DNA from: Bigelowiella natans CCMP2755
Lineage: Eukaryota > Protista > Cercozoa
Length of the DNA: 41,834 nt
Assembly (NCBI GenBank): GCA_000320545.1
Contig: ADNK01002079.1
Location: 1-41,834, forward strand
Reading direction: 5' to 3'
Below are positions 1 to 36,715 of this stretch, piece after piece. The notes below the pieces were generated by a model, which made no database searches, was not told the origin of the DNA, and saw only the letters and a list, made by a program, of their open reading frames with translations. How positions within the stretch are numbered: the first letter of the stretch is position 1; each line of letters opens with the position of its first letter. The translations under genes and the position numbers were made by a program.

Positions 1-52
<52 letters not shown>

Positions 53-54
53 AT
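1..54. repeat. (TA)n/(TG)n microsatellite, intact
   Basis: Seen directly in the sequence. Confidence 0.95.
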
Positions 55-60
55 ATAATT

Positions 61-515
61 TGTGCATATATCCTCAATTTGCATCCCTTCCGTGCGGAAA
101 GCTACTCAACGCAACGACCCTCATTCATTCTGTGACGATGCACAGGGCCACGTGCAGACGCGGTAATCAGCACTTTGCCCGGACACGGAGTTTCGAGGTA
201 GGAGGCAGCGTGTAGTACGTGGGTGGTTTGATGGTATGTTCGTATAATTATGCGGTTTATTACTTCTTACAGGGGCAGAGAGTGTTGGGTTTCCTGCCTT
301 CCCCTTCTAGCCCCCCCCCCCCCCCCTTTTCACACGCACACACGTGTACACATGTGCGTAGTCTGTACGAGTTGTTTGTGTTGCGCCTCATTTTGCCAAC
401 ACACCGCTATCACACAGGCATGCGCCCATACTGGCTGGAGATCATTTGCTTGAGAAATTGGCGAGAACAAATGTGTAACCGGCCCGCCAAGGTTGCATTC
501 ATAGCGCAACCATGA
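61..515 (+). CDS. Possible 3' exons of an unidentified gene entering from the left edge
   Basis: Plausible donor GAG|gtagga at ~198, acceptor ttacag at ~272, and acceptor cacacag followed by an open frame ending TGA at 515. No recognisable domain. Confidence 0.25.
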
Positions 516-1070
516 GCTAACAGACACGCCCATGCAAGCATGACACGTCTAGACGTGTGTGCACGTGTGTTCATGTCACATGGCCACATTGGGATGACCA
601 TTGAAAAGATTCAATCACTTCGTTGCATCCGTCTTGTGCATTCATGTTGTACACTCATGCATGTGCATCAATGCACGTTGATGTCCACTTCCTTCGCCGG
701 CTCTCCGCATGGACAATGCAAGCGATTCATCAGGCCCGCGCACTGCTGGACGACTGCTGGACTTGGCCAGCTCTGGAACTGGCCCTGCTAGCCTGCCCCA
801 CTCTGGCACTCGTGGGGTCTGCATTGCTCCCACGCGTGCTGGCTAGCTGGCGTGTTGCGAGCATGTGTGCTAGCTAGCGTGTGTGATGTGTAAGCAACAA
901 TAATGACAATCATCGTAACCGCCAATGGCGGTATCTGCGATGTGGGCAGAGCCCACCTGCTCGCAAAGCGATGCGACAGCATTGTGCGACTGCATCATTG
1001 TGCTGCATCATGTCACATCATCACACTTGTGTTTCCAAGGGGTGTTTTTCAGGGGAGGGGGCATGCACAT

Positions 1071-1244
1071 GTGAAGTGCACATGTACATGATGTGCATGT
1101 GCATGTGCACATGTGCATCATGAAAAGTTTGGTTTTCAAAATGCCTTTCATGCCCCTGGTGTGTGTGCACATGTGCACATGTGTGCATCACATGCATGTG
1201 CACATGTGCATGTACATGCACATGTGTGTGCATGTACATGTATG
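1071..1244. repeat. Decayed (TA)n microsatellites converted to a TG/CA mosaic
   Basis: Alternating pyrimidine-purine runs whose YR steps are almost all TG or CA, with a few residual TA and no CG. Confidence 0.8.
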
Positions 1245-1379
1245 TTGCAATTTAAATTTTTTTAGTTTTCATGATGCCCCAGAAGCCCTCATTAACAACA
1301 AAATGAATGAGGTTAGAAAAAAACACTGATCAAAGTGGGGGTCTGAAAAAAAATGAAGAAGCATGCGATGTCATTACAT

Positions 1380-1527
1380 GCGATGTGCTGTGCCGTGCGA
1401 AGCGATGTGCCGTGCTATGCATGCATGTTTGTTGCGAAGCGATGTGCCGTGCCATGTGCCGTGCCGTGCGAAGCGATTTGCGGTGCTGTGTGCCGTGCCA
1501 TGCGACTGCTGACCAACATGCGACTGG
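1380..1527 (+). repeat. Mutated copy of the GAAGCGATATGCCGTGCTA repeat family
   Basis: Aligns to the 2228-2367 array; the substitutions seen are at TA dinucleotides. Confidence 0.85.
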
Positions 1528-1599
1528 TTTGATAGCATTGTGTTGTGAGATGCTCATGCGAAAAACTACACAAAGAAATGTGTCACACGTAATTCAGTT

Positions 1600-2216
1600 A
1601 TGAACAAATCTAACGAATTGGTGAAAAAATTGTTAATTCTTTCTAAATCTAATGACATTGAGAATGCTATTGAAGAATGGAAATCTCTGAAAAGTTGTGC
1701 GATAGGTAAGCACAAAAAATGTATGATTTCTTGTCAACGACATTGTAGAAGTTTCATAAATTTAGAAACTTGTAATGTCATATATCTCAAAAACAAATAT
1801 AGTGAATTAAGTGAATATAAAATGTTGATGTGGAAGCATCTGCCAACTTTTCAACGAACGAAAAACTCTTTTCATATGGTCTTTACAATTACCTAAATGA
1901 AAAAAAACCAGTTTTACAACAATTAAACAAAACAAAACATTCGCACAGTTTAAGTCTCAAATTAAGAGCTAAAAAATCAATCAGTTTCCACGATTTTTTT
2001 GAAATTTACAAAAATAAATTAGGCTTTGAAGGATTAATCAAGTTGTTTTTGAAAATTAAAAAAATGAGAAAATTCAAAAACATTTCTAAAAGACACAAAG
2101 AATTATTTGATTTCTGTTATGATTTGTTAAAAAGAAAATACAAAAACAAATATTCCATTTATCTATCATACAATTATCCAGAAAAAACAACACAACTAAA
2201 AAAGAATGTCGTTTGA
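1600..2216 (+). pseudogene. Frameshifted virus-like hypothetical protein gene
   Basis: ORFs 1600-1896 and 1830-2216 join if one A is added to the A-run at 1819-1822 (…EYK|NVDVEASANF…). The N-terminus LLILSKSNDIENAIEEW resembles a giant-virus/phage hypothetical family (from memory, unverified). Confidence 0.55.
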
Positions 2217-2227
2217 AAAACAGACAC

Positions 2228-2367
2228 ATATGCCGTGCCGAAGCAATATGCTAATACATATGCGACTAAGCGATATGCCGTGCTAATACACTGTTATTAC
2301 GAAGCGATATGCCGTGCTAATACACTGCTATTACGAAGCGATATGCCGTGCTAATACATATGCGACT
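2228..2367 (+). repeat. 34-bp tandem repeat (~2.7 copies from 2268, plus partial units)
   Basis: Unit AAGCGATATGCCGTGCTAATACACTG(T/C)TATTACG starts at 2268, 2302 and 2336. Confidence 0.9.
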
Positions 2368-2476
2368 CCCACAACATACATACTTAACAATATAAGCTAT
2401 TAGCAAAAGGATTCCACTTTTACAAAACATCCAACTATGATTTTCATTTAAAGAATTGTCTCACTATAAGATTAAT

Positions 2477-2674
2477 ATGAGTAATATTAATCAAGTAAAT
2501 AAAAGTAGCACAGCAGATAAAATCTATGATGTTGACTATAAACTTAGTGAAATCGTCCTCGTAATAGATGAACTAAAAGCCGAACCGAATCCTGAATTCT
2601 ATCGCAAACTAAGATATAAACTGATGGAAGTCCACATTTGTCTAATGAGCGAAGTTGTAGATGGCTATAAATAA
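2477..2674 (+). CDS. Small AT-rich hypothetical protein (65 aa) of the viral relic
   Basis: ATG at 2477 after an AT-rich leader; MSNINQVNKSST…VVDGYK*. Virus-like codon usage. Confidence 0.4.
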   Translation: MSNINQVNKSSTADKIYDVDYKLSEIVLVIDELKAEPNPEFYRKLRYKLMEVHICLMSEVVDGYK

Positions 2675-2718
2675 CTGTATTTTCTCCAGACAGAACCCGA
2701 TGTGTGTGCGGAAGCAGT

Positions 2719-3576
2719 CTACATAGCGATGCGAAGATACTCCCCAGATTTGAGATAATTACTATCATCAACCCCACCAACGGCAAACAGTTTGCCATCC
2801 CCAACGACCACACCCAACCATCTCCTCTTAGTATTCATATCAGGGATTTTCTTCCACCCCGCATCCACATTCTTCAAGTCCAGATACTCCCCAGACTTTG
2901 AACCATACCCACCAACAGCAAACAGTTTGCCATCCCCAACGGCCACACCCAAACCCCACCTCTCAGTATTCATATCAGGGATTTCCTTCCACCCCGCATC
3001 CACATTCTTCAAATCCAGATACTCCCCAGATTTGAGACGATTACCATCCTCCCCACCAACAGCAAACAGTTTACCATCCCCAACGGCCACACCCAAATAC
3101 CGCCTCTCAGTATTCATATCAGGGATTTTCTTCCACCCCGCATCCACATTCTTCAAGTCCAGATACTCCCCAGATTTGAGACGATTACTACCATCATCCA
3201 TTCCACCGACAGCAAACAGTTTGCCATCCCCAACGGCCACACCCAAACCCCACCTCTCAGTATTCATATCAGGGATTTCCTTCCACCCCGCATCCACATT
3301 CTTCAAATCCAGATACTCCCCAGATTGGTGACGATTACTACCATCATACCCACCAACAGCAAACAGTTTGCCATCCCCAACAGCCACACCCAATTCTCTC
3401 CTCTCAGTCATCATATCAGGGATTTTCTTCCACCCCGCATCCACATTCTTCAAGTCCAGATACTCCCCAGACTTTGAACCATACCCACCAACAGCAAACA
3501 GTTTGCCATCCCCAACGGCCACACCCAAACCATATCTCTTAGTATTCATATCAGGGATTTTCGTCCACCCCTTCAT
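2719..3576 (-). CDS. Kelch-repeat beta-propeller protein (6 near-identical repeats)
   Basis: Six copies of W..IPDM.T.R..LGVAVGDGKLFAVGG…SGEYL with the kelch GG and W signature. The frame stays open upstream to ~3705 through a charged helix, so the true start is uncertain. Confidence 0.9.
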   Translation of the reverse strand: MKGWTKIPDMNTKRYGLGVAVGDGKLFAVGGYGSKSGEYLDLKNVDAGWKKIPDMMTERRELGVAVGDGKLFAVGGYDGSNRHQSGEYLDLKNVDAGWKEIPDMNTERWGLGVAVGDGKLFAVGGMDDGSNRLKSGEYLDLKNVDAGWKKIPDMNTERRYLGVAVGDGKLFAVGGEDGNRLKSGEYLDLKNVDAGWKEIPDMNTERWGLGVAVGDGKLFAVGGYGSKSGEYLDLKNVDAGWKKIPDMNTKRRWLGVVVGDGKLFAVGGVDDSNYLKSGEYLRIAM

Positions 3577-3766
3577 CTCCAGTAATTTTTGTTTCAGCTC
3601 TGCTTCTTTCTTTATTCTTTCAGCCTCTTTCTTTTTTCTGCCTCTTCTTTCAGCATTTTGCGATCTTTGCCTTGATCTCTGCAGGGCTGGATGGTGAGGA
3701 GCTGGTCATCTGGATCAAATAATCTTTGCGAGGATGGGTGTTCAGTTATTAAAAATTTCCACTCTC

Positions 3767-4087
3767 TCAACTCACAAAAAATCCCCTATCAACTTGCTTT
3801 CTTTTTCGCTTACTAGTCCGTATTTCAACAGGTTCATCGGTCCACTTCTCTCTCGGTTTCGGTGTTTTTTTCTCAATTGCTTTTTTGACTATTTCGTTTT
3901 CAGCAGGTTTCAGTTGATTCTTGCTGAAAGTTTTGTCTAAAACACCTTCTAAAATATATCTTACTGGTCGGTCTGGTAATAATAATATGTTTTCAATTTT
4001 GTGCGGTTTCAACGAATATCTTATGTCGCCCTCCCTAAAATTACCTATTTGTTTCTCTCCTTTAAAATTCACAGACAACGCCTTCAA
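3767..4087 (-). pseudogene. C-terminal fragment of a Polinton/virophage-type rve integrase
   Basis: GNFREGDIRYS…IENILLLPDRPVRYILEG…FSKNQLK matches my recollection of the post-catalytic SH3-like region of Maverick/virophage integrases. No ATG, and the DDE core is absent. Confidence 0.55.
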
Positions 4088-4341
4088 TTCATGAACATCT
4101 CAATTGTTTTCGTCTCTGCAGCAGGTTCTCTCCTGGCGAAGTTGGCTTGGTTCTCATCCCGATTCCGAACCAGCATCAACCATGCCTTTCCTCTTGTCGT
4201 ATGATCAGAGCCCGCAGCCTTTACCCACGGAACATCCTCGAATGCGTTTGGATGTTTTCCCATGTAATTATCGCCTTCATTGCATTCTCTTAGCGCCTCC
4301 CTGTGAGAACGGACCGTGGACAAGCGATCATCAGGGCGAGC

Positions 4342-5841
4342 ATGCCTCACGGCGCTCATGCTGCCGGATCGATCGTCGTGGCTGCATTCCTCTTTCTCTT
4401 CCTCAGCGGATCGCTGGTGAGCCTTTTCCGCCAGTTAGTTCGACCATTGGCGTCGTTGAGATTGCTTTTATTCCGCAGAGTGGAAGTGGTGGGAACATCC
4501 GCACCAGCGAGAGCCATTCCAGCCCAGCACGCATGGAAACTCAATCCAGTGGGAAGCTGGAATTTTCAGCAACGGCTGGGAATTCATCGATGGTCAAGCT
4601 TTCTACGAACGTCGTGCAAGCCTTCTCAGAGTGGAAGTGAGTTTTCGCCCTAGCCTTCTTTTCGATGAGGGTGCTGATTTTCGAAGCAACCTCGGAATAG
4701 CCGGCACATGAGGCTAACTGTTTTGACATTAGGTATGAGGATTGGTTGGGATATGCGTTGAGCGTTGCTCAATCGGAAGGACGAAGGGCCACGTTCCTCC
4801 AAGTGGGGGCAAACGATGGGATCAAAAACGATCTGCTTTTCCCCGTGTTGAAGAAGAATTTCAGTGCATGGCTTGGCTTCATGGTTGAGCCTGCAGATTC
4901 AAACTTCAAAAGATTGAAGGACTTACATGGAGGACGGAAGGAATGGACGCTGTTAAAGGGGGTTGTCATGCCAAAATGCCCTGCATCAGGAACGGTTTCT
5001 TTCTGGGAGTACAGGGGCGATTTAAACGATAGCAGTATCCCTTTGTTCTTCCGGAACGGCCAATCAAACTCTCTGGACTTCTCCAAAAAACCAGAAAACA
5101 AGAGGTTCATGACCGAAGTGAAACAGCCGTGTGTAGACCATCTCGACGCTGTTCTCCGAGAACGTGCTAGTGCAGCCTGGCTGAAGGAATCAATGGCTAA
5201 CCCATTCTGCCAATCATGGGGTTGCAATTGCCAGGGTCTTAGTGACCTTACAGGGCTTGCGCATGGATACTACAAGTCGATCCAGAATGCAAGTGAATGC
5301 CAATTTCGATGGTGGTTGAAAAATGGGTAGGACGCCCAAAATTATATGTACACAGGAATGTCCTTGAGCGCTACAAACCCTTTCACACCATCGTTCATTT
5401 TTTTTTTGGTTATTGTTTAGATGTACGACTAAACCGAAGAAAGGAGGTCATCCTACTTCCGCCCAGTTGTCACCGAACGCAACACGACATTGGATTGATG
5501 TGTTTCAAGTCGATGTCGAGGTAATAGCAATGAAATTTCTTTTCTGCGACTAACAAGAATGGCAATTCTTTTCTCAGTCAATTCGTGCACATGGTACACT
5601 TTGTTTTCAGGGATTTGATTTCGAAGTCATCAAGAGTTTGGATGTTCATCAATTCCGTCCGAAAATTATCATGTATGAAAGTAAGATGCTAGATGGTAAG
5701 TCACAAGGCGAGGCAAGGCTCCATCTTGAGCAAGCCGGTTATTGGGTGAAGACCCACAGAGAGGATACATTGTGCGTGGATTACGCTTGGCTTCAGAGCG
5801 ACATGTTAAAAGCAGAGCTACCAGCATGCTCGATATTTTAG
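4342..5841 (+). CDS. FkbM-family (Methyltransf_21) SAM-dependent methyltransferase with N-terminal membrane anchor
   Basis: Phase-compatible exons 4342-4416, 4479-4636, 4733-5326, 5421-5520 and 5611-5841. Motifs FLQVGANDG, MVEP and IDVFQVDVEGFDFEVIKSLD…RPKIIMYE. Hydrophobic N-terminus IVVAAFLFLFL. Confidence 0.85.
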
Positions 5842-6630
5842 ATGCTTTGTATTCATTATGTGTAGTTCCATTCCTTGTTCACATGTGAGATGGATGCAAT
5901 GGATAAATGATGAAATATTTTCAACATAGAGTCATAGCTATGTGTATTGTGTAATAGACGCAGTAATATCATGTAGTTGCTATGTACAATTATTACATGG
6001 TATGTGTGCATGGCAGCGGTGCCGACAATGATGTCTAGTCACAACTAGTTATTCAGACCGCGCGCATGGCACTTTGAGCACACATGCGCGATGTTCGCGT
6101 GCAATGTCGTTGCGGTCACAAACATCCGCCTTGGCACGTGGATGAATTTGAAAAAAAGATACACGTTGAAATTCCATCGATCTGGAACCCACTAGCCTAG
6201 TAGCCCATCTAGCCATGTCGATTACAGCACATTTTGTGTCATAAAAATCGACACTTAAAAAATGAGAACATGTGAAAATTTGTGTGATCTAGTGATGATG
6301 TTGAAATATTGAAACACCGCCAGAACTCGCGCATTTGCTCGAAATGCAACAAAGGATGGTTTGTCGTGATCATCACGCTAGCCAAGTGTGAAAATGCAAC
6401 CATTTGTCTGAAAGTTCATTTGTTTCATTGAGACGAAATTGCATCACTTTTTGCACAGCTCAAATGAAAGCAAAAAAAATCCGCAAAACGATCAAACATC
6501 GACGCACAGCGCTTCTTTGATGAAAATGCATGCACATGCTCGTTTTCCCTCGCTAGCTCGCTCCATTCACGTTCGCTTGTGTGCGCGCGCACGAACGCGC
6601 TGCCAGTTGATGAGGGAAACCGATCAGAAT

Positions 6631-6769
6631 CATGCATGCAGGTGACACGTGAGAGCATCGACAATTAATATGCAATGGTTCTCTGCAAACCATCATCAAT
6701 GCACATGCATGCAGGTGACACGTGAGAGCATCAACAATATGCAATAGTCATCTGCAAACCATCAATGCA
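6631..6769 (+). repeat. Imperfect tandem duplication (~70 bp x 2)
   Basis: CATGCATGCAGGTGACACGTGAGAGCATC…TCTGCAAACCATCAATGCA at 6631 and 6704. Confidence 0.9.
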
Positions 6770-6888
6770 CATGCATGCATGCATACTCATGCTAGCATGG
6801 CTAGCGAACTGCGCTAGTGCGCGTAGCGAGCAAGTAGATACATTCTTCATAAGAGCGCTCATGCTGATGCCTTATTGCACAAGGAAAT

Positions 6889-8120
6889 TCACAAGGTATC
6901 CTGTGAAACAACGACTTCGTCGTCGATTATGTCGTCTTGACGATCATCATGACTGCTGCTGGTAGAGCGCCCAAATGCGCTGATGGGGAAACAAAAGGGG
7001 AAGGAGATGAGAGAGGGGAGGGGTAGAAATAGTGTCAGTTATTCTACCGCACACGTGCGCACCGTCGCCAAATGACACTTAGACACTATTACGCTAGGAA
7101 TTCTGTATTGCCGCCAGTTGCGCCTTTGATGGGAGATTTCGTCCAACCTAAGGTATTAGGAGAGCATGGCTCATACGATGATTCTCTGAGGCAAACGGTG
7201 GCATAGCAGCAGCGCATTCAATGCTACGCTCTCCTCAGCTAAACGGGGTCGGGGTCGTTCAACTATTTTAAAAGAAAACCATTCATTTGTACGTCTACCC
7301 ACTCGTTTATGCTATATGGAGATTTAGTTATTATAAAAATTTCCCATACAGTTATATATTGCGGGGTATTTATTGCTTATTCAATTATTCATCAGATATC
7401 CGTACATTTGCTTCGCATGTATATTCTCAAAATACACGACACAGTGGAGGCAGCAATACCGTAGCATCTGAAGCCGAGCTCCTCGGTCCCTGCCATCAAA
7501 GTTGGCGTGAAGATGGTACATTTGAGATTGTATATAAAAAAAACCGAGCTGCACGAATGGAACTTGCATTTAGTTTCCTCTGGGATCAATGGGCGGGATT
7601 TTGGCAATATCGATGAAAAAGCCATAAGAATACCTTTGATGACGTTCTGTATCACCCATTGATGCACAGCTGGATCACGCACCACCCCCCCCGAGCCAAC
7701 CTGCGAAGAACGTATCCAACACATAATATTATCTCCCATATTGATAAACATATATTTTATAATTTAGTATACATATCTTTATAAAATATATTAGACGGTA
7801 TCATTATGTATTTGCTGTTTAAGTGACAACAATTATCGATCACCATCACCTGCTCCTTCGTCGCCTCAAACTGCGGTTTGATAAGGATTACCAACTCAGC
7901 GTTGGGGGCAAGGACATCGACGACAGCGGGCAGTACCTGCACATATACGATGATGATGGCGCTGCATGCTGCTGCTGCTGCTGATGATGATGATGATGGT
8001 GGTGTGTAGACAATGATGATTGTGATTTCGGTTTTGAGCCATTTGAGCGGCGGTATTGATGCAGTACTCATACCCGAGTCGCATTTTCATCGCATTTAAT
8101 TATCATAAGTGAGCATATAC

Positions 8121-10550: not shown

Positions 10551-11612
10551 ATGGCCAGCTACTCTGAAGGAATCCTCCTCGGCGTGGGAAACCCGCTACT
10601 CGATATCTCCTCCGAGGTTGATATGGAATACGTGAAGAAATACGAGTTGAAGATGTCCAACGCCATTCTTGCTGAGGAAAAACACATGCCAATCTATGGG
10701 GAGCTCATGAAGAACAAGGACGTCAAGTACATCGCAGGAGGCGCAACCCAGAACTCCATTCGTGTAGCTCAGTGGATGATGCAGGCTAAGGGTGCAACCT
10801 CCTATATCGGATGTGTGGGAAAGGATGACTATGCAAAGAAGCTCACTGATTGTGCTGCTGGAGATGGCGTGCGAGTTGAGTACCTTGAGGACGCTGACAC
10901 TCCGACTGGAACATGTGCATGTCTGATTGTGGATAAGGAGCGATCTTTGGTAGCTAACTTGGCCGCAGCTAACAAGTATAAGGTCGATCACATGAAGAGC
11001 GAGAAAATTGTGCCAATTTACAAAGCCGCAAAAACTATCTATGCCGCGGGTTTCTTCATCACTGTATCACCCGACACCATCGACCTCCTTGCAAAGCACT
11101 GCGATGAAACCAGCTCCACATTCTGCATGAATCTCTCGGCGCCATTTATCTGCCAAGTGCCGCCATTTGCGAAGGTTCTGAAGGATAACTTGAAATACAT
11201 GGACTATCTTTTCGGAAACGAAAGCGAGGCAGCCGAATTCGCCAAGATGATGAAATATGAGGAGACCGACGTAGCAAAGATCGCTGCTCTTGCATCCAAG
11301 GAGGAATCTGTGAAGGGCAAGAAACGTATTGTTGTCTTCACCCAAGGATCCAGCTGCACATGCGTTGCAGTTGAAGGAAAGGTAACTTGCTACGAAGTTC
11401 CAAAGCTAGATGCAAAAAAAATTGTTGATTCGAACGGAGCTGGAGACGCATTCGTCGGTGGGTTCCTTTCGCAGCAGCTCGCTGGTGCCGATCTGGCCAC
11501 GTGCGTTGACGCTGGGCACTACGCTGCTCAAGTAGTCATTCAGTCAAGTGGAACTAATCTCGAAGGGAAACCAGAGTACAAGCCAAAAAAGGCAGACATT
11601 GTCAAGGCTTAA
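10551..11612 (+). CDS. ADK: Adenosine kinase (PfkB family), intronless
   Basis: GNPLLDI, AGGATQNSIRVAQW, ERSLVANLAAAN, NLSAPFI, FGNESEA and DSNGAGDAFVGGFL. Confidence 0.97.
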   Translation: MASYSEGILLGVGNPLLDISSEVDMEYVKKYELKMSNAILAEEKHMPIYGELMKNKDVKYIAGGATQNSIRVAQWMMQAKGATSYIGCVGKDDYAKKLTDCAAGDGVRVEYLEDADTPTGTCACLIVDKERSLVANLAAANKYKVDHMKSEKIVPIYKAAKTIYAAGFFITVSPDTIDLLAKHCDETSSTFCMNLSAPFICQVPPFAKVLKDNLKYMDYLFGNESEAAEFAKMMKYEETDVAKIAALASKEESVKGKKRIVVFTQGSSCTCVAVEGKVTCYEVPKLDAKKIVDSNGAGDAFVGGFLSQQLAGADLATCVDAGHYAAQVVIQSSGTNLEGKPEYKPKKADIVKA

Positions 11613-13123
11613 GAATGCTGAAAGTCAGTGAGCTACAAGCTCGTGTGTGGTCGATGTGAATGCAGTGTGTGGATTGGTTGGGTGCACACTAGTGTCGTGA
11701 CTAATGAGAACACAACGAATCCTTGCTTTGATTATTTCAACATCAAGAGAAGCAACTTTAAGGATTAGCTTAGAAGTAGTGGTGCGCGCGAGCCTACTCA
11801 TTGCATGTGCTGTTCGAAATGTCAAAATGTTGAGATCATTCGTCGTCCAATCACAACTCGGTCAAATCTGGTAACACATTTAGCTGCCGCAAAAGGCGAG
11901 TTGTGCGCGTGCGCGCAGCTCCTTGCAATGATGAATGTGATCACAGAACACGCCAGTGCCTGTTCGTTTGGTGTGAATTCATGATGCATCTCACATGCTG
12001 CCAGCGGCATCCAACATCCTCCGATCTGACCAAGCTGTGTGACAGCTGTCGCATGCACACACTCTACAATCACCTGGGGCCACTGTGAGCACGCGATGCA
12101 TCACACCCAGAACAGCGCATTTGTGCACATTGTCGTGTTCAATCATGTCTGTGGATGTCACAGCTAGACAAAATGACATCACACGTGCAACACGATCACA
12201 CACGCTAGCAGGAGACCAAGGACGTTCATGTGTTTCCAATGGGCGCAATGGCTTGGGGGATGAGGTGTTGTGTGCACGTGTTCCTCCTCACCTCTTAGAC
12301 CTGCGTGTGATGTGTGCCTCCGTGTTGTTGCGTGTGCAGACGCGACGAGCCAGAAGAAAAAATCGAGCCAGACTGAACTGTGCGGATGAGAAGCACCCAT
12401 CATTGAAACCAGGATCACCATGACTGGTCTGGGGTTTCACATTGATGGTTTTCAGTGTGCAGCTTCTAGGCTTGTCTGTTGTCGAAACTGAGAGGGGAAA
12501 TGGACACTCATCAGTGCGTCACGTTCCAGCCTTCGTTGTCTGTGCACTAGTCTCCGCTTGCTTTTGAGTTCCGATTTGTCGCAGTCCCACACAATGAGAA
12601 CTCTGGCACATTTTTGTCGTGCGACAACAAAGCCAGATTTTTCTCACATCTGTGCCCATAGATCTATTTCTTGTGCTTTTCCTTGCCTCAAAACCTGGCT
12701 CGAGCTAGCTTCTCTTTTCATCCTGTCACTTTGGTTTCCCCCCCCCCCGTTACTTTGTGGTGAATCACTGGGGATATTTTTGCAGAGACAACATGGAAAC
12801 GCGAGAAATCGAAGAAATCGACGGGTTTTGTGCCGTCACCTCTCACAAATTAAGTCGGCTCCGCAACCCAGATGAAGTGTCATGCATGTGCCCTTGCTAC
12901 GTGAGCACGTGCACGTCATGCAAGGGCATCTCAGCAAATATCGATCTCGCTTTGATCAGTAGGAATAGCGTTTATTGGGCGATTTTATCGAAGGCAAACC
13001 TGGCGATAAGTGCCAGGCACAGGCCTTCCCTTCGCGTTTACATCATCCTCCTCTTTCGAGGCACGCAGACCGCAGATCTTTCTGCTCTCAGCGGCGCAAG
13101 CGCACAAATCTCAACGAGAAGCG

Positions 13124-14432
13124 ATGTGGAAAGTGTTCTTGCTCACAATGTCGATGCTCCGGGCCTCCGGCCATGGCGTCATGCAAGTCCCCCCGGCGTG
13201 GGTGAATTCAGGTAAGGTTCAGCTGCCCTTCCGCTCCTGTTGGGGTTCTTGAAACGAAGGCTTTTTGCTTTGGAAAAGGTGGGAAGCTTGTCGAAAACGC
13301 GACCCGGAACGAATGCAATATGAGGTGCCGAACAACTCGTCATCCCACCCCATCTTTGCTTCCCCCTTTCGCACCATCACCATCACACAGAAGAGAACCT
13401 TTGGAATTATTCCAGATGTCTTCACAACTACCTCATGCGGGGAGTCGTGTCCACAGCGCCGGGATGTGGATGCTTGTGGTTCACCAACAACACCAAGATT
13501 CCAGGAAAACCCACGATTTCCGACGACTCGCCTCTTCGCACGTTCCTGGATCATGAAGACAGGTCCGATAGGCCTTGGCGCGCACCAGGAACGGCAAAGA
13601 GCTACCCCTGCGGAGTGTTCGGCGGAAACCCTTCAGGCTGTGGTAGTCCGTCAGATAGCGACTTCTATTCGTACGATTCCGAGATGTAGAAAATGTAGAC
13701 GAATAGCAGTCATGATCGTAGTGGTGATAAAAAATTACCGCTGATTGCATTCCTTAGCGTTCTCCCCCGCACCAACCCTCCCCCCTCCCCGCCCCCCCAA
13801 CAAAAACATAAGGCAAACTAGAAGGGAACCTGTGCATCTATGGAGGCAGCCAGTACGGCCCAGATGCTCGGATATTTGACTTTCCAGATGTAGTAACGAC
13901 AACATACAAGATCGGCTCGACGATTGAAACCATGTGGGGCATCAATACCAACCACGGCGGCGGGTATTCCTACCGACTGTGCAAGCTGCCGCGAAACGGC
14001 AAGGCCGATCTCACCGAAGCATGCTTCCAAAAGCTCCCTTTGAAGTTTGAAAGCGACAAGCAGGCTATTCAATTCGACAACGGCACGAGAGTGTACTTCC
14101 AGGGCATGAAAACCACCAAAGGAACCCACCCTCCAGGCTCTGAATGGATGCGAAATCCTGTACCCTCCTGTAAGCCGCACGGCGAGGTTTCTACTATTCC
14201 CCACTGCCCACAGGGGACCTTCTTCGAGCCTCCAGTTCCTGGCGTGTTTGGAAGGGGTATTTATCAGGTGACGCCTCTCTACGCAAAGATGTCCTTCGAT
14301 TGGTCGATTGTAGATCGCGTCGTTATCCCCAAAGGCCTAGAGCCCGGAAAGTACGTTCTGGGGTGGAGATGGGATTCAGAACAGGAACCTCAGGTATGGG
14401 CAAACTGTGCGGATATCGAGCTGGTGGAGTAG
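13124..14432 (+). CDS. Secreted histidine-brace copper protein, LPMO-like
   Basis: Exons 13124-13211, 13391-13642 and 13822-14432. Signal peptide MWKVFLLTMSMLRASG followed directly by HGVMQVPP. Also PWRAPG…PCG, NHGGGYSYRLC and YVLGWRWD…QVWANCADI. Confidence 0.82.
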
Positions 14433-20940: not shown

Positions 20941-21880
20941 ATGTCGAAGTTTCCATCGACATGTATTGCGTGGTTGTGCTTGATCGGCGGCCTCCTCGTC
21001 CTGCTCTTTAGGTCCACACCTGCAGAGAAGAGGGGTGAAAGAATAGCAGCGGGCTGGTTAACAAATAGCAGAAGGAGTTCTGTATCCAGCCAGCGTGCCT
21101 CGTTAGCCCCTCATAGTGTTCACAGCTTCATTCATAGAATCAGCAGAAGAGGGTCAGGATTCAAACTATTCAGCCATGTACCTATACAGTCCCAATGGGA
21201 CACGAATAGAAGCGCCCAGTGGGTTTCACCGCGCTGCGAGATTACGTCGCTATATGAGAAGCATGAAGGACCCTCTTCGAGCTACCAGACGGTTCACTCG
21301 CAGTGGAATGTAATATTATGTTTTTCGTAGCGCTGGAAAAACAAAAAAATAGCCACCTCCTAACCACCTCCTAACTTTCTTCATAATACAGGGGACGATG
21401 CCGACGTGGAAGAGCGACACAAAGCTTTACGAGCAGTTCCAACATGCTCCGAGGGCGGAAATATCCGTTACAAGATTCCCAAGCGCGGCCCGAATGCAAA
21501 TGGAGCGGATTGATAGGTGGACGGAGTGGGTAGCTGACGTCTCCTCGTTCCCGTGGAGATACACGACTTCAGAGGTTGCATACATCGTTGAGGGCGAGGC
21601 GGACATTCTCCCCAATGATGGCGGGGAACAGGTCAGCGTGAGGCAAGGAGATGTCGTCACTCTTCCGAAAGGGTTGTCGTGCACATGGTACATAAAGGGG
21701 AAACTAAAGAAGCGCTATAAGTACGTGACAGACGCAAACGCCTACGCATACAAGAACATGGAAAATGACCACCCAACTGTCGGGAGCGTTTATTCTGGAA
21801 TTCCAGAAATTTTAGGGGCTACTAACATCAACGAACATCGTGGATTCAACGGGATACTTGATGATGAGAGGAAATTCTAA
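20941..21880 (+). CDS. Cupin_3 (DUF861/EutQ-like) protein, probably plastid-targeted
   Basis: Exons 20941-21309 and 21392-21880. W..W…FPWRY…EVAYIVEGE…GDVVTLPKGLSCTW.I…KKRY. Signal peptide plus Ser/Arg-rich transit-like leader. Confidence 0.85.
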
Positions 21881-27096: not shown

Positions 27097-30000
27097 ATGT
27101 ATAGTCTTTGGCATTGCACCGATGTCGGTTCCGAAGATGGAGAATCGGGTTTGGTGGGCGGCAGGGAGGGAGGGGACGGGTTGAGTAGCTGGATTGTCGA
27201 TGCTCCATCGAGGAATCTCACGCAGCACCACACGCTTCATTCTATCCATGTGAGTTACAGTAATAATTACGAGGAAGAGCCGGCAATGATTGCCCCCTCC
27301 TCGTTCTATCAAGACCCCCTGGATGGCGGGACTGCCGAGCGTTATGATGGGCTGAATCATCATCCTCATTCTCATCATCACCACCACCACCACCATAGCG
27401 ATGATGATCTCAACAACGGCAACAACAACAACAACAACCCGCTTTCAGAAGACTCCCTCCCCCATCACCACCATCACCACCAAGCCCTCAACAACGGCCT
27501 TGCTCATTCGTCAGGCGTAGAGTCTGATATCAGATCTCACCCCCCCCAACACCACCACCAGCAGCACCACCACCGCCATAACGACCACGCCAGCGGGGGG
27601 GGGATGGAAATTTCGATATATGACGAGGATATGGACGACAAGAAGCATATTTATGACGATGGAAGCTGCAGCAGGGATATAAGTCTGATAGCCGGGGGAG
27701 AGGGACTCTACGATACTACCGTAAAAGAGCTAGACGGACAGGGGGGGAGGGGGGGGAGGGGGGAAGCGGCGTTTGGGTTAGGCATGATTTCTGAAAGGAA
27801 CAACACGGGAAGAAGGGGGCTAGACCTAGCCCTTAGCAACTATCAGCGGCATAAGGAAGACACCTCGTACGAGATTACAGAGAATAATACGTCGTCCTTA
27901 CCAGAAACCTCAGGAGCTACCCCCCCCCCAAACCCCTTTCCTGAGCAAGTGAACGATGATGAGATCCAGGAGAAACGGGTAAGTGGCGGAGGGGGCGGCG
28001 GCTGTAAAGCACTTGAATCAACATCACCAGGGAAGGAGCACAAAGCAGCAGCTAATGTTAGGAAGGTGAAGAAGAAGATCCCGCGAAAGAAGAAGAGAGG
28101 TAGGCCAAAGAGAAAGGGAAAGAAGCAGCAAATGCAGGCTATCAATCGCGTCTCCCCGTCGGCGAGGACTCCTTCCTCCTCCTCCCCCTCCTCCTCCCTC
28201 ACTCTCTCCTCCGCTAGTCCCAACGCAAAAACATCTCGTATCCGGCGTGGAAAGAGGCCTGGTAGCAGCATCGTCGATTGGAACTCGATTGTGTGTAACA
28301 GAAAAGCTGTCAATGCCGAGATTCAAGCAATGGAGGAGAGGGGGAACACGCAGCGCACATTGCCGTTTCTTCCTATTAAAAAGTCGGCGTTGGTATCAGT
28401 CACCGTTGTGGAAAATCATGGAGGTTATTGCGGAAGAGGAAGGAGGCGGCGGCGACGGGGAGGGTGGAGGAGGAGGGGGAGGGGGAGGGGGAGGGGGAGG
28501 AGCTTAGCCTCCTCAAGGGTTGAAGACTATTATCACAGCACCGCTGGATGGTATCCAGGAGCGAGGAAGAGGAAGAAATTGGAGAAGGGGGAAGAAAAGG
28601 AAGAAGGTCAGGCAAATATTCGGATTTTGATGATTATGATGATGATGATGATTGATGGGTGATGATCACCTTTCTTATTACAATCGTCGTCACAAGCATA
28701 TTCATTATCATCATATCGTCAATGCCGTCGTTGTCACCGTGAGTCGTATTTGTGCGTGTGTGTGTGTGTGTGTGTAACTGCAATTTACAAGCGTATTTAA
28801 CCTGATATCACCTTAGGAATTCTGTACATACCCCCCCTCCCAGTTCCTCCTACGGCAAAAAGTAAAAGATTCACGCCTAAGATCCGTACTACTGCTGGAG
28901 GAGGGGAAAGCATGAAGTTGGTGGTGGGGTGCACTACGAGCAGCGGTAGCAGGATCAACGACACGGAAAAGATCATCTACAAATTGACAGCAGTTAAGAC
29001 CCCCGCAGTGGAAGCTCTCCCTTCTACAATGGTAATTGTTCTCACTAGCAGCGCCATAGAGTCATTGAGTGATAATCAGCCCTTAGAAACCCAATAACAA
29101 CACCTGCGATCTGTGACAGACGTACGTGACGGTGACAAGCAGCGTCAGGGCGGAGGATGATAAGAAGCTTAGATTCGTTCCTTACCTTTCGGAAAACCAA
29201 CAGGTGTGAATAAACTAATATGGCCGATCTCTAAGAGGGGAAAAAATTCCTCCCCCGCCCTCCCTCCCGCCCACAGACCTAGAATGTGCTTTAGTTTCGT
29301 ATACTCTTCGCCTTGTTCTTTGCTGCCCTGACTCCCTCCCCCCACCCCCCCTTCCCTTCTGTCGCAGGTGGGGCTGAACCTGTCTTTGTACAACAAGTAA
29401 GATCCCAAAGTCCTTCATTGTATTGTTGTAAATCACAAAACATCACCCGATTAGTAACCGTCATAATCATCATCATCATCGTCATCATCATCTTCAATCG
29501 CTATATGTTCGCACGACAGGCTTCCATGGTATGATAGCAGTGATAGCAATGATGATAACGACGAAGGGCAAGAGGAAGAGGACAAGGAAAAGAAGAAGAA
29601 GAAGATGACAATGAAGAAGAAGATGCTGATGGGGGGGGTGACAAAGGGAACGGACAGCAGAATCAAGCAAAACGCTCATGATTACAAAGACGCCGGCAAT
29701 TTATCAAAGAAGCCTATTTCTCCCCATCCTTCACCATCACTGCTTTCACCAGAAGCAGCAGAAACCATACAACAACAACAACAACAACAACAAGACGTCA
29801 AGCAGACTAATCAACATCAATCGTCGCAAAGCACACCGATTTCTCCTTTATCGTCGCAAGGTAGCAGCAACAGCAGCCGCCCCATGTTTATGACCCCTCT
29901 TCCTCCTCTCCCTCCCCCCCTCCTACCTCCAACTGATAAAACTTGCGGAGTTCAGATTTCGCCTCCAGCAGTTGAAATAGATGAAGCGAGAAGAGCCGTC

Positions 30001-31118
30001 GATACTGCCACCCCCCCCTCCCCCTCGTTATCAGCGTACAGAAAATATTTTTGCCGAAGGTGCTATAAGTACAACTGCAAGATGCACGGAGTTGACCATC
30101 CAAGGAGCAAGGAGATTCGAGTAGGCAGCGGCGACTACGAGCAGCAGCAGCGGCAGCAGCAGCAGCAGCAGATACGACAGCAGAAGAAGAAAATCAAGAA
30201 GAGGGCGATGAAGAAGAAGAGAGGGAGAAAGAAGAGGCAGAAGAAAGGAGCAGGGGGGCCAGCGCGCAACGGTAGCGACGACGAAGAAAACGACGAAGAT
30301 AATGACAATACTTGGTTGATGATAGATCGAACAACGCCACGAGTCCCTTGCGGGCCGATGTGCTTCTTGCCACAAGTAGATGCTAAGGAGCTAACGAATG
30401 CCCCCCCCTCCCTCCACAGCATCCACGTGCGAGTTGTCCGACCGTCGTCGAGCAATAAGCAAGTGCATCCTAGCATGTCGCCACAGCAAGTAAAGGCCTC
30501 ATCTTTCACCCGCTCATCATCATCATCATCATCACCACCACCACCAACAACAACGACAACATCAATATCGTCATCGTCAACGCCATCATCGCCCCTCCCC
30601 CCAGTAGCAGCTATAGAGCCATCGTCATCAGCATTAAGGCGTCATTCGCCGTTGGGGGAGGACTCTGTTGGCATTGAAGACGTTTTGAACGGAGATCATG
30701 CCAGCAATACCAGCAACTTCGCATCGAAGCACATGCCCTCATCCTCGACTGCGCCCACCGCCGCCTCCCAATCGTCTCCATCTGCCATCGGTGACGCAGG
30801 GAAGGGGGGGAGGAGCGAGCTGGCAAACAGCCACAGTACTGCCTTCCAGAAGGATGGCGCTTGTGATGAGAAAAAGAAGAAGAGGAGGAAGAAGAAGAAA
30901 AAGGACGATGAGGAAAGTGTTCCAAAAAGCAGAAAGAAGGGGTATAATATCGGTGAATCCATACAGCCCCAAGCAATAGATAAGGTGAGCCTCACTACCA
31001 TCATTACTATCATCATCAACGTATTCTTCGATGTCGTCATGTAATCATCGTCATAAGTCATCGTACACACACACACTCTCTCTCTCTATCTATCTCTCTC
31101 TCTCTCTCTTTCTCTATC

Positions 31119-31155
<37 letters not shown>

Positions 31156-32406
31156 CACACCACACAATCTGTTTGCCTTTGCTGCTACGACAAACAACAG
31201 ACGGGGCCGACGCTAGTTGTGAAGGTGAAGGGGCATGATTCCTACCCATATGTTCCCGATGTGGATCCCAGCAGCATTGAAAACCATATGAACTATCACG
31301 TGGTAAAGACGGCGGATGACACCCCGGCCGAGGATGACGATTCATCGGAAAAACCTGAAAAACCTGCGCAGAATAACAGGGGGGGGGGAATGGAAAGCTC
31401 AGCTAGCAAGAAAAAGGTGACAGCGATTGCTTTGGAGGATGATGCAAAGAAACCTGACCTTCGTCCTTCCGCCACTTCCTGGACAGAAGAAGAGGAGAAA
31501 ATACTTAAATATGCAGTATTCGTTTCAGGGCCGAACTATTGCAAGATCGCCGCTCTTCTCGGTTGCCCCCTCCCCTTCTTTCCCATTTTCCATTTTGGAC
31601 AGTAGAGTAGAATGTTCCAGGGGGAGGGGGCGGGGCTGATGTTTGGCAAAAAAAAAAAAAAAAAAAAGAAACTCACACTCCCCTTTGTCTCAACGCATAC
31701 AAGATGCCAATCACAGCTACGATTGGTGCTTTATTTTTAAGTCGCCTCACTGCATTCTAACGTTGCTTCGTTTCTCCCGCCCGGCTATCAGGCCCAACAA
31801 AAACATGCCGTGATGTGTACTTGTACCTTCAAGCTCGATTGCCAGCCCAACCGAAGCACCACCACACCAACGCAAACAGCGCCTCTCCCCCGTTACTGCT
31901 GCCGCCCTGTCCTTTGCCCCGCAAGCTTCCCCCCTCCTTCCTGGTTGACGGCGAGATTAAACCATGTGTTCTCAATGCATGCGGGAAGCTGGCGTCTGGG
32001 GCCGCACCTATCATCACGAAGATCAGTGCTGCAAGTAGCGCTAGTATGACCGCCACGGTTGGGACGTCATCTATCGATGCTACAAGGACTACAACAGCAC
32101 CAACTACTAGTACTGCCGACAACGTACTTCATCTTGTTGGAACACGTAAAGAGCCGGCAGCAGGTGAAATTTGATGTGACTGCAATGAGGTCATGAGAGC
32201 GGCAAAAGCTTCTTCGTCGTCATCATCTTCTTCCTCTTCATCATCCTTCTCCTCCCCATCTCTCCTCTCGCGCCATTCCGATCCCAAGGAGAGCGCTGGT
32301 GGGGGGAAGGGTGACGCAACGGCCTCTGGGCAGCTCACTGATGGGCATTTCAACTGTGCTTTCATAGCCAATCCCTCATCATCATCGTCGTCGTTGTCGT
32401 ATCTGG

Positions 32407-32441
<35 letters not shown>

Positions 32442-32860
32442 ATATCCTCGTCATTATCAGCAGCAGCAGCGGTTCTCTCTCTATCGTCCTTATCCTCACC
32501 ATCGTTGCCATCATCGTCGCCATCATCAGTATCACTCTCCCTTCCGACTATCTGCCCTCGGCCCTCCCTCCCCCCCTCTGCCATTCCCAAGCAGCCAGTC
32601 CTCGGCAAAAATGGAGGCAGCAAAGCGGGGGGAGGGGGTAGGAAGCGGAGGAACAATAAAGATCATCAGATTAAGGTACTAGTGCAAGGACAATAGGGTA
32701 GTTGAGTAGTAGTAGAAGTAGGAGGAGGGGGGGGGGGGAGGGGAGGAGAGAGCAATATCACCGTACTCTTCTGTGGTGGATGTTGACAAGAGAAATGAGG
32801 AAAATTGGAAGAACGTCCAAGAAAGAGTAGTTGTGGTAGTTGCAGGAGAAAATAGTTGGC

Positions 32861-32893
<33 letters not shown>

Positions 32894-33688
32894 CCAAGAT
32901 ATGATTAAAAAGAGTCGCTAAAACCTACCCAATCATCCGCATTTTTTCCCTTTTCCCCAGCAATTTTAACCTTAATTTCACCTCATGTGCTCCCCCCCCC
33001 CCCCCCTCCAAATCTCGAAACCTTCTTCTTTTTCCTTCTTCTTCCAGGCAATAGCAAATATGATGAAGAGGCGTAGGCTGCCTCGCCACTACAAGCCTTG
33101 TCATCACCCAGGCCTTCCTTGCACCGTTGCGAGCGGCTGCTCATGTGCTATTGCTATTGGCTTTTGTGATAAGTTCTGTGCGTGTGAGGCTGCGTGTGGT
33201 AGGCGCTTTCAAGGCTGCAAGTGCCAACAGGGAACGTGCAGGACGAAGGCATGCCCATGTTATGCTGCTGACCGTGAGTGCGATCCGGTAGAGTGATGAT
33301 GATGATGATGACGATGATGGTGATGATGATAACGGTGATGAAGATGATGCTTTCCATAGCAACATACAATGAAAACTGATAAAAACTGTAGGATCTCTGC
33401 CGTCATTGTCGCTCCGAAGTGCTCGGCTATCCCCCCTCCTTACACCCCGTCGCAGCCGCAGCAACGACGCAAACAGCTACTAATGCTGCAGCACGGGAGG
33501 GGGGGCATGATCCAACTGGCACTAGCCTGGGCATTAATCCGTCGATGATGAGGAAAGCAAGGACGGCTGTTTCTCCTTCTTTTTCTTCTTCTTCGGAGCA
33601 ATCGAAGCATAGGAGATTCTGTCGTAATGTCCAAATACGATTCAGCAACAAGTACCTATTACTATCATTACCATTATTGTCATTCTTA

Positions 33689-33725
<37 letters not shown>

Positions 33726-36228
33726 GATTGTGCGAGTATGAATGTGCATGTTAGCCAACACATAGTTCCAAAGAATAATGGTGGATGAAATATCCGCACT
33801 GAAACGCACATGTGTTGAAGGCGGAAAAGCCTTGATTTTTTAGATACTTGCCCACTCTCAATCCTCATGATTCGATCCTTTTACCAGAATGCGTCGCGGG
33901 GTCTTGCTTGGTCGGTCTCGAGTTCATGGATGGGGCACTTTCGCAAGGGACGATACAAAAAAAGACGCACTCATAGCGGAGTATGTTGGAGAGGTAAGGC
34001 TCTATCACAAGATCCGTGGACGTCGTCGTTTTTGCTAAGAAGGCGAGGCAATGAGAGCGGTTGAGCGAGTTATGAGGAGAGGGGGCGCCGGGGGAGGGGG
34101 GGGGGGGGACTTATTCACATGGGATGGTATTGCGTGACCCAAACCTTTTAAAGTATTTGTCTTTTTTGAAACTAGATACCACTGATGATTCTGCATTGTA
34201 CATCTCCCTCCACCCCGTTGGGTTGTGCCGTGGGTCGTCTATAATCAGCGTTCTTTGCTTTGAATGGAATTCGAATTTGATTATCATAGCAATCCATGAG
34301 AGCATTGCCTTGTATTGCTGACTCTGAGGAGAGCCTTTATCACCTTACTCTACCAAACCATCACGATAAATGATGGTGATATTCCAACGTCGCGACTCAT
34401 TCGTTGTTCGTAACAAAAGGTTTGCAAATCACAGCGACAAGCCCAACTGCTATCCTCGTGCTGTTCGAGTGAAGTAAGAAAGGGGGGGGGGGTTAGGAGG
34501 GGGCATGGGATGTCTGAAGCTGATACGCGCTGCTCGAGTGCTTTCACTAATAGAGCTCCCACTTGTATTAACTGCCGTTTTGTAGCGGACAACATCGCAT
34601 TGGGATATTTGCCAAAATGGATATTCGGAAGGGGGAGGAGCTCTTTTTCAAGGTATGTATGTATCTCCCGCCACTCTGCGTATTTAAGCGATACAGCACG
34701 GTTCTTCTTTAATACATGCGCGATAAGACGAAACGACAAGCCGTCTTTTTGGAGTGTTTTTCTGTCACTTTGAAACAAATCGGATCTTCGTCTTCGGCAG
34801 AGCGCATTGAGATCAATCTGCAGTTATGATGTTATTGTGCGTTTTTGCAAAAAACATGCGTATGTGTGTGTGTGTGTGCGCGCGCGCACGTGCGCGTGGA
34901 TTCAGACCTTGTCTTTTTCTCTCTTATATACGTGTTTACTATCCTGCTGTGTATCTCCTTCTTATGATCATTCTCATGATCACATAATCGTCGTCATTAT
35001 CGTCTTCATCATCATCGTCGTTTGCCAGTGTCATCACCGTTATCTCATCACACAGTACTGCCATGGTCACACCGGCAATATCCCAGACTGGTACGGTGCG
35101 AAGAACAAGAATCCTCTATCTGATAACGGCACTATTCCAGGAGGGGGGGGCAGCAGCAGCAGCACCCGCGCCCAGAGAAAAGTAGCAGCCGTCGATACTG
35201 GCGAGTCTGCTGCCGTTGTTACAGAGAAGATAAACAGGAGGGGGGGGAGGAGGAGGAGGAAAAGGACAGTGTCCGCATCGGCGATTTCTGCGGCTAGTAA
35301 CGGAGTGAAACTAGCCTTCCCCCCCTCATCATCATCATCATCATCCTCTTCTTCTTCTTCTTACTCGTTCTCAAAATCAACATCCCCGCCATCTCTCTCC
35401 GCAGTGCCAATATCAAAGCCGAAACCCTCTTTGCATCTGGCGGAAGGGGGGCGGGGGGGGAGCAAAGAAGGGCGAGGACTCCTGCGAGCAGTGGAAAGTT
35501 CAGCCAAGAGGATGAAACAAGCAGCGGGCATCGATGCGAACAGCAATGGAGGTCACCGTAGGACCACGTATAATAGCCGACAAGCTGCTCTCGCCTCGAA
35601 AGCAGCAGCTTTTGAAGCTGCAACGATGGCGACGACTCCCAGCAATACGACAACGACTACCACCACAGCAATGATGATGATGATGATGATGAGGATGGGG
35701 AGCGGAGAAACTAGTAACGTGCGTCGTCACCACAAACCCGGGCTCTTGCCACCCCAGCCTCCTACGAGAAGCGCCGCCGCTGCCGCACTTGCTAAGATGA
35801 AGAAGATGACGACGAAGAAAAGGAAGAGGAAGTATGGCCAAAGTTTCCATAGTCGGACAAACGACAACTACTTCAAGAGAGGCCAAATAAAAGCGTCTTT
35901 AGCCCGAAACCATCACCTCCCCACCAAGAGAAGTGGCAGGAGCAGCAGCGGCTGCCAGAAGGATAATGATGATTTTCGGGCGAATAATGCTGAATATAGT
36001 AGTAATAATAATAAGCAGAGATCCAATTCCCAACGGCGGTACTTCTGTAGGCATTGCCAGCGTGGCTTTGTGTACCGCGCAAGGCATCGGACCCACGAAA
36101 CCTTCTTCTGTACTGAGCGCCCCGCCGAGGAAGCGAAATCACAAATTTCCGTAAAGGCAGACGAAGGGTCGTTGTCTCTGGCGGCGTCGTCGTCGTCATC
36201 ACCGTCGTTATCTGCATCAACAGGATAA
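27097..36228 (+). CDS. E(z): Enhancer-of-zeste (PRC2) H3K27 methyltransferase homolog with long low-complexity insertions
   Basis: AEDDKKLRFVPY (~29150), YFCRRCYKYNCKMHG, PCGPMCF, SANT WTEEEEK…NYCKIAALLG/TKTCRDV, CXC YKPCHHPG…CPCYAADRECDP, and SET motifs HGWGTFA…AEYVGE, FANHSDKPNC and HRIGIFAK…GEELFF. Start uncertain (possibly 26806). Confidence 0.92.
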
Positions 36229-36349: not shown

Positions 36350-36715
36350 GCCTGCTAGCTTTATTTGACAGCACAGCTACATTAGGTTGACCAGTGGGAA
36401 AATGTTTAATAGACACAAACAGCTGCTCTAGTCTAGTAGTGCTGTTTAGTAGACACCTGATGCACATCTAAGTGTACTAGCTAGCGTATACGCGCTATAG
36501 CGCGCTTGCATGTTTCTAGACCTAGCTAGCTGCGACTAGTAGATACCAAAACGTCAAGCTATCAAGACGACAAGCATGATAGCACTAGTAGAGTACTCTA
36601 ATACTTCTAGCTAGCTAGCTAGCTAGTAACAAATTGGCTGACGACATGTCTATCTAGCTATATGTCTAGATGTATACAGCAGATTGCGCAGGCTAGCAAG
36701 CTTAGGAAGCTATAG
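36350..36715. repeat. CTAG-rich low-complexity tract between convergent genes
   Basis: About 18 CTAG in ~350 bp by manual count, including (CTAG)5 at 36607-36626. Confidence 0.85.

Follow-up and report, generated by a model that had tools for sequence, protein, structure and literature searches.

Integrated NCLDV and virophage DNA of Bigelowiella natans was recently reported to undergo hypermutation restricted to the dinucleotide TpA (Mettrop et al., bioRxiv 10.64898/2026.01.13.699255). In the mutation-accumulation experiment of that preprint, 231 mutations were recorded in two integrated viral regions, of which 230 were A to G or T to C and all 230 lay at TpA; viral-region mutation ran at ~1000 times the background, with an ongoing de novo rate near 10−7 to 10−6 per site per generation, 124 TpA-poor clusters were recognized genome-wide, and an ADAT2-like deaminase was proposed. 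This was the one published description among the papers listed in a literature search, judged by titles and the first lines of abstracts, the other papers being, on the same parts, about RIP or CpG decay. RIP, which turns CpA into TpA in fungi, resembles the pattern described below in its dinucleotide-specific transitions and in being concentrated on repeats, local, and copy-specific. The consulted parts of the literature have RIP making C to T, whereas at the locus studied here TA is lost (rho TA 0.37 over 500-1600), i.e., the opposite in both direction and base. A preference for TA combined with repeat targeting is also known from the dinoflagellate silencing mark 5-hydroxymethyluracil (5hmU; TET/JBP), which prefers TA and TC in C. 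cohnii and marks and silences repeats in A. carterae; the portion of the source available (PMC11572971) describes a mark and gives no spectrum of mutations, and its evidence is dinoflagellate rather than rhizarian. Finally, endogenous virophages and Polinton-like viruses of B. natans are described, in the accessible sections of two reports (PMC6723459, PMC5499653), as multi-copy inserts of low GC content, frequently truncated, whose ORFs lack introns, a description that the element examined here resembles. In contrast to these inserts and those of NCLDVs, none of its tested ORFs was found to encode a capsid protein, packaging ATPase, helicase, or integrase, and no long terminal inverted repeat was seen within 1-6000.

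We analyzed 41,834 nucleotides of B. natans CCMP2755 (contig ADNK01002079.1 of assembly GCA_000320545.1, positions 1 to 41,834; hereafter "the window"). Its TA-poor tract at 501-1600 is a fresh instance of the process reported in 2026, with added detail on targeting; both process and direction were already known, since the preprint had measured TpA to TpG/CpA change in B. natans (10.64898/2026.01.13.699255). The two data sets agree in species group, type of change, involvement of both strands, and direction, and positions 501-1500 (rho TA 0.36, rho CA + TG 2.02) lie within the 1-kb window cut-offs of the preprint (rho TA ≤0.43, rho CA + TG ≥1.52). Only 3 of 82 overlapping windows do so (501-1500, 11501-12500, and 12001-13000), with no run of three consecutive kb: the published clusters span three windows, whereas the tract described here is shorter and its element carries no detected viral gene. 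The preprint also rests on mutations arising de novo within a pair of large viral inserts, together with genome-wide composition, while our evidence comes from comparing copy against copy, so that the locus provides copy-against-copy proof of action over evolutionary time. Copy polarization, a within-copy gradient, a fossil microsatellite test, and conversion of a poly(A)-site motif are not part of the preprint's main text.

Repeat arrays, sister copies, and direction of change

The preliminary description of this locus, made from the sequence alone, had compared two 25-nt stretches, 1430-1454 and 2295-2319 (both + strand), as a single repeat before and after conversion. Letters and coordinates are exact as first read: the left copy has G for A at 1431, 1434, and 1444 and C for T at 1453, these four mismatches are every TA step of the right copy (appearing as three TG and one CA on the left), and the three CpGs are identical. 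The accompanying 10-mers, ATATGCGACT at 2258 and 2358 and ACATGCGACT at 1516, are likewise found exactly. While the placement of the differences at TA holds, the two stretches do not represent one repeat before and after a change, and belong instead to two different arrays of a multi-copy element. An 18-nt core motif occurs seven times (≤3 mismatches; 0.07 expected by chance, and 0 of 100 shuffles reach seven), with four units in 1381-1486 (starting at 1381, 1398, 1435, and 1469) and three in 2266-2351 (2266, 2300, and 2334; 34-nt period), on either side of an AT-rich ORF. The left units form an array within the left non-coding part of the element (1276-1525, + strand), and the right units a second array, in TA form, at 2227-2367 (+ strand). 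TA steps number 3 in 221 nt in the left block (1340-1560), compared with 27 in 206 nt in the right one (2215-2420).

Sister copies of the element were compared in four sequencing runs over 900-2760, with contigs X1, X2, and X4 assembled from DNA or unlabeled runs. Contigs from three runs match the converted stretch with zero differences (X4 over 1346-1479, X1 over 1422-2132, X2 over 1030-1361), and the TG/CA form is therefore no assembly error. The sister contigs, which merge copies and do not yield true copy numbers, stand at ~3-4 times single-copy depth. Cassettes between the arrays vary, as seen from joints 1452 to 2356, 1452 to 2418, and 1398 to 2679, and the arrays at 1381-1525 and 2227-2367 may flank exchangeable gene cassettes. 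In other family members, the left array is joined to sequence past the right array, with 900-1280 nt skipped.

Sister copies keep TA where the window has TG or CA, which gives the direction of change as TA to TG/CA, in agreement with the mutation-accumulation experiment of the preprint; we consider both the TpA mutation process and this direction all but certain. Among the major transitions listed with G or C in the window and A or T in sisters, 31 of 33 fall at a sister TA (exceptions: 622 and 1588). Over 1328-2188, counting from the best-supported 40 of the 230 difference rows for 900-2760, 20 of 21 G to A or C to T rows pair window TG/CA with sister TA (background 0.49, p-value = 8 × 10−6), the exception being 1588, and the other listed rows comprise three transversions plus clustered indels at 1568-1571. 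TA is the sister reading at 1328, 1331, 1345, 1407, 1420, 1424, 1453, 1488, 1499, 1514, and 1517. For 100-1330, all 24 rows at ≥10% were considered; 12 of these, G to A or C to T changes at 579-945, are the majority allele in DNA runs, with nine at TG/CA, two representing one TA read as CG (914-915), and one non-TA (622), a count that excludes minor non-TA rows (584, 608, and 618), RNA-only TG/CA rows (1270 and 1273), and four transversion rows. Three transitions run in the opposite direction (916, 917, and 932), each at a TA retained in the window, and the coexistence of TA, CA, and TG alleles at 916-917 places TA at the root. With 618 and 622 removed, the 29 single polarized sites comprise 9 TG and 20 CA products, i.e., both strands are hit. 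At 914-915 and 1588, the window has CG where sisters carry TA or TG, reflecting either rare second hits or CpG decay in the sisters.

Polarization of the four sites first compared is uneven. Only 1453 is polarized directly, with T in sisters of the left array, and together with 1517 it is a private conversion of the window copy. The other three sites are largely common to sisters: in sister contig X4, 21 of the 22 differences from the window over 1430-2252 are listed at other positions, which leaves at most one for 1431, 1434, and 1444 together, so that sisters share two or more of these sites; all three are absent from the best 40 of 230 difference rows, in which 1429 and 1453 appear. Site 1444 is polarized just indirectly, through its counterpart 1407 in the neighboring unit, where sisters have A; its conversion is therefore probably older and became fixed ahead of the multiplication of the left array. 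The homology of 1430-31 to 2295-96 is doubtful, and may not hold, given that 1430-31 is the terminus of a (TATG)4 run in sisters. The TTAC to TTGC difference put forward against an ApT context thus sits at an unpolarized site, although the conclusion it served, TpA and not ApT, is right on other sites. The same was true of the process as a whole, which had been read correctly, yet via a partly flawed comparison. It had also been proposed to polarize the repeat with genomic and free-virus copies: the genomic sisters give TA at 1453, and no free-virus copies were found.

A second line of evidence on direction comes from the kelch family. An intronless reading frame with six kelch repeats (2719-3705, − strand; ATG at 3576) is unconverted in the window and has many B. 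natans paralogs, its best relatives being Bigna1 (B. natans) models on several scaffolds. One paralog, P0008 (Bigna1/143226, a kinase-kelch fusion), has no Tyr in 477 amino acids, compared with 2.7% across the family (p-value = 3 × 10−6). In the conserved E-Y-L columns, P0008 carries Cys or His in 5 of 5 cases and the window protein Tyr in 6 of 6, and P0008 also has Val for Met at 6 aligned positions, with a TA step present at each of the window's six P-D-M codon junctions. Four Asn to Asp changes in P0008 lie off TA, against the TpA rule. Tyr-free gene models could flag converted copies from a proteome alone. Another model, P0112 (Bigna1/88992), is a partly converted relative.

Dinucleotide context and reach of conversion

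The context of the change can be read within the tract itself, from a fossil (TA)n microsatellite at 1062-1244. Its 68 units comprise 37 TG, 27 CA, 4 TA, and 0 CG, whereas the loose ends of sisters at 1061 and 1123 consist of uninterrupted TA. Independent changes would yield 14.7 CG units, compared with none observed, and 13.5 GC junctions, compared with 14. When TA runs were simulated at the same load, CG units, GC junctions, and TA units left numbered 0, 14.9, and 4 under a TpA rule, 15, 0, and 19 under an ApT rule, and 15, 14.6, and 19 with no context. Only the CG and GC counts test the rule, since the load set by itself dictates how many TA units survive in the TpA simulation (4), and the 14 GC junctions exclude ApT. 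Slippage makes the units of a microsatellite non-independent (of 53 four-unit words, 19 are distinct), and the lack of CG could owe something to CpG decay as well. Converted TA runs, with no CG units and normal GC junctions, offer a cheap internal test for any genome.

Polarized single sites point the same way. At 18 of 29, no T follows the mutated A, while the remaining 11 have the context TAT and so satisfy either rule, and ApT is not depleted (rho 0.93-1.35); together with 14 GC junctions where an ApT rule predicts none, the 18 sites outside ApT confirm the TpA context proposed at the outset. Comparison of the 29 converted sites with surviving TA showed no clear flanking-base preference. 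Neighboring units of the fossil run were hit on the same strand in 24 cases and on opposite strands in 31 (p-value = 0.28), and same-strand runs were absent: there is no sign of processive single-strand bursts, and no positive support for a processive single-strand deaminase.

Conversion is steep and local within one copy. Against one sister contig, conversion affects 9 of 13 TA sites in 1430-1599, compared with 5 of 51 in 1600-2251 (p-value = 4 × 10−5), corresponding to ~70% of sites left of 1600, ~10% in the ORF, and little in the right array. Purifying selection was considered as the cause of this gradient: 2 of the 5 conversions in the ORF are synonymous, compared with an expected fraction of 0.31, which in this small sample gives no sign of it.

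Left of the element, the tract runs through dispersed repeats. Positions 579-634 hold a very high-copy dispersed motif of ~55 nt, with flanks that differ between copies, at hundreds of times single-copy depth; tailed RNA reads (23 and 38) place poly(A) near 592-595 in minus-sense transcripts. Candidate identities are a 3'-end or terminator motif of B. natans and a short interspersed repeat; we infer a host 3'-end motif. The window copy has TG or CA at 585, 591, 612, and 625, where most sisters keep TA. At these four positions, 17-31% of the X2 depth is without the TA letter, and further copies may therefore be converted too. Weak matches to the motif lie elsewhere in the window at 5888-5924 (−) and 36376-36403 (+), with E-values of 0.32 and 0.11, and the match at 36376 keeps TA. 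A dispersed repeat at 878-1023 is converted at 895, 898, 905, 907, and 911, has CG for the sister TA at 914-915, and retains TA at 916-917 and 932, where some sisters show CA or TG; in its last part (994-1023), 6 of 6 sister TA steps are converted, from a by-eye comparison with the X1 loose end at 980.

A host transcript reaches the left edge of the tract. A GT..AG intron at 198-417 (+ strand) is marked by an RNA joint from 195 to 416 (cut +2; 3 reads, 2 starts) and by + reads over 394-603, in the one RNA run that provides the RNA evidence over 100-1330, and the last exon of this transcript extends to about the edge of the TA-poor sequence. Two more TA-poor, TG/CA-rich tracts lie just downstream of host reading frames, at 11500-13300 and 6000-7000 (rho TA 0.31 and 0.44, respectively), while the rest of the intergenic sequence, and the majority of TA microsatellites in the window, have kept their TA steps. 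The ten reading frames in 11620-13212 matched no Pfam family below an E-value of 0.07. Inside the tract at 6000-7000, a ~75-nt tandem duplicate (6631-6779; 87% alike) has short TG/CA runs resembling the fossil microsatellite. Conversion is thus patchy and local and is seen outside proven viral DNA, and some of the tract resembles host sequence. Local conversion within one copy, reaching DNA that does not look viral, narrows the range of targeting models.

Candidate mechanisms

The reading that best accounts for these observations, and one we hold to be very probable overall, is that a TpA-specific process rewrote TA to TG/CA over ~1.1 kb, covering the left end of the element and the adjoining dispersed repeats. 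The target would likely be silent, repeat-rich DNA, silence being a reading of the pattern, and the enzyme likely a host adenine deaminase. Both strands are hit, normally once per TA step, as no target is left after the first change. Single hits would have accumulated over many generations, the older ones (1431, 1434, and 1444, the sites shared with sisters) presumably already fixed when the left array multiplied and the newer ones private (1453 and 1517). In chemical terms, A in TpA would be deaminated to hypoxanthine and read as G, with the ADAT2-like protein as the candidate named in the preprint. By analogy with TadA-derived editors, which prefer TA according to the available part of one report (PMC9024924), this is the chemistry that we favor, tentatively and at somewhat short of an even chance. 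A process that erases TA in this way is likely a defense against foreign DNA.

Because TpA is palindromic, A to G and T to C are not separable, so that on sequence grounds a lesion on A would look the same as one on the paired T. The foremost alternative builds on this symmetry, and supposes that a TET/JBP-type enzyme marks T in the TpA of silent repeats, as 5hmU or a further oxidized form, and that the marked base templates G, giving T to C on either strand, with mutation as a by-product of a silencing mark. Oxidized T is known to mispair with G, and the domain-like, strand-uncoordinated, and saturating pattern found here would suit a double-strand mark. The TA/TC preference and repeat marking of dinoflagellate 5hmU, in the part of PMC11572971 cited above, also speak for it. 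Against it, no TpC conversion occurs among the listed sites, and the literature search found neither a paper that connects Bigelowiella with JBP/TET or 5hmU nor one linking 5hmU, TpA, and T-to-C change. We regard a lesion on T as rather unlikely, though the strongest of the competing chemistries. The sites defined here are supplied for nanopore or chemical mapping.

A broader proposal is about as speculative: a domain-wide inverse of RIP could follow a symmetric TpA mark (modified T or A) in untranscribed chromatin, rather than being a virus-specific editor, and would spread beyond mobile elements to microsatellites and the 3' ends of host genes, stop where transcription begins, and operate in diatoms too.

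Error-prone patch synthesis in repeats is less probable still. A polymerase-eta-like enzyme with a WA hotspot, producing A to G at TA and AA, would leave scattered A:T to G:C changes on both strands with TA favored, much as is seen here. Such an enzyme should also strike AA, yet no major listed transition lies at AA/TT and the tracts show no shortage of AA (rho 1.1-1.2), and in the preprint the GC-ward mutations of hot regions all fall at TpA (10.64898/2026.01.13.699255). The rest of the probability belongs to TpA-directed adenine methylation followed by deamination, or to other routes.

Two last readings we consider extremely improbable. A RIP-like change of CA/TG to TA, with the right array and the sister copies derived, might draw on the AT-biased ordinary spectrum of B. 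natans (2.65; 10.64898/2026.01.13.699255) and on the fact that three of the four sites first compared are without direct polarization, but it would demand parallel gains of TA in several sisters at identical sites, an origin of conserved Tyr from Cys as well as His, and the derivation of the sisters' pure (TA)n runs from mixed TG/CA. The mutation-accumulation experiment shows the opposite direction, and the three-allele site at 916-917 and the Tyr-free kelch paralog refute it. Decay of an ApT-6mA mark would give A to G changes and fits the 11 sites in TAT, but fails at the 18 sites with no T after the mutated A, at the GC junctions of the fossil run, and on the undepleted ApT. Both are rejected (PMC12695648, in the part accessible).

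Identity of the element and neighboring genes

Base composition sets the element apart, with a GC content of 0.20-0.28 in 1601-2200 compared with 0.44-0.54 across most of the window. Its AT-rich ORF (1600-2216, + strand), whose family is not assigned, bears only five TA conversions and is frameshifted near 1818 in the window copy, sister frames being unbroken. No homologue of this ORF was found by word search, in viral contigs, or in Pfam and PHROGs; its Atlas matches were all <0.8, with a weak LAGLIDADG-like lead only. The sole match in the full library, P0127 (E-value 6 × 10−5), was rejected as a repetitive unnamed protein. A short AT-rich ORF of no family (2477-2674, + strand) lies in a high-depth part of the element, and neither it nor the kelch gene matched viral contigs. 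Across five ORF pieces of the element compared with Pfam and PHROGs, significant scores were to kelch or unnamed families only, with no capsid, packaging ATPase, helicase, or integrase among them. Of five window proteins looked up, two had an entry in the collection; for one of them, clustering at 90% placed it with a named protein of Bigelowiella natans.

Scans for viral or free copies of the motif returned 2 viral and 24 metagenome loci, none genuine: these 26 are chance matches, as they are GC-rich (0.49-0.69) and matched over <40 nt around the motif only. In six marine metatranscriptome runs, 0.06-0.09 of the query words were present, a figure from word matching that gives no evidence of copies. 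The expectation of free-virus copies of the 34-bp repeat was accordingly not borne out in the viral and metagenome scans, nor was any viral homologue of the element found there. The element could be a truncated viral one; no long inverted repeat was seen in 1-6000.

Beyond the element, the window carries several host genes. One is an intron-rich E(z)/EZH2-like gene at ~27097-36228 (+), with an Ezh2_MCSS match in 29605-31041 and what we take by eye to be CXC- and SET-like stretches near 33050-34630. A PfkB-family (adenosine-kinase-like) gene lies at 10551-11612 (+), a cupin gene at 21398-21880 (+), and a gene for a DnaJ-domain protein at 36942-37961 (−). The frame at 4746-5330 (+), by eye and without a Pfam match, is presumably methyltransferase-like.
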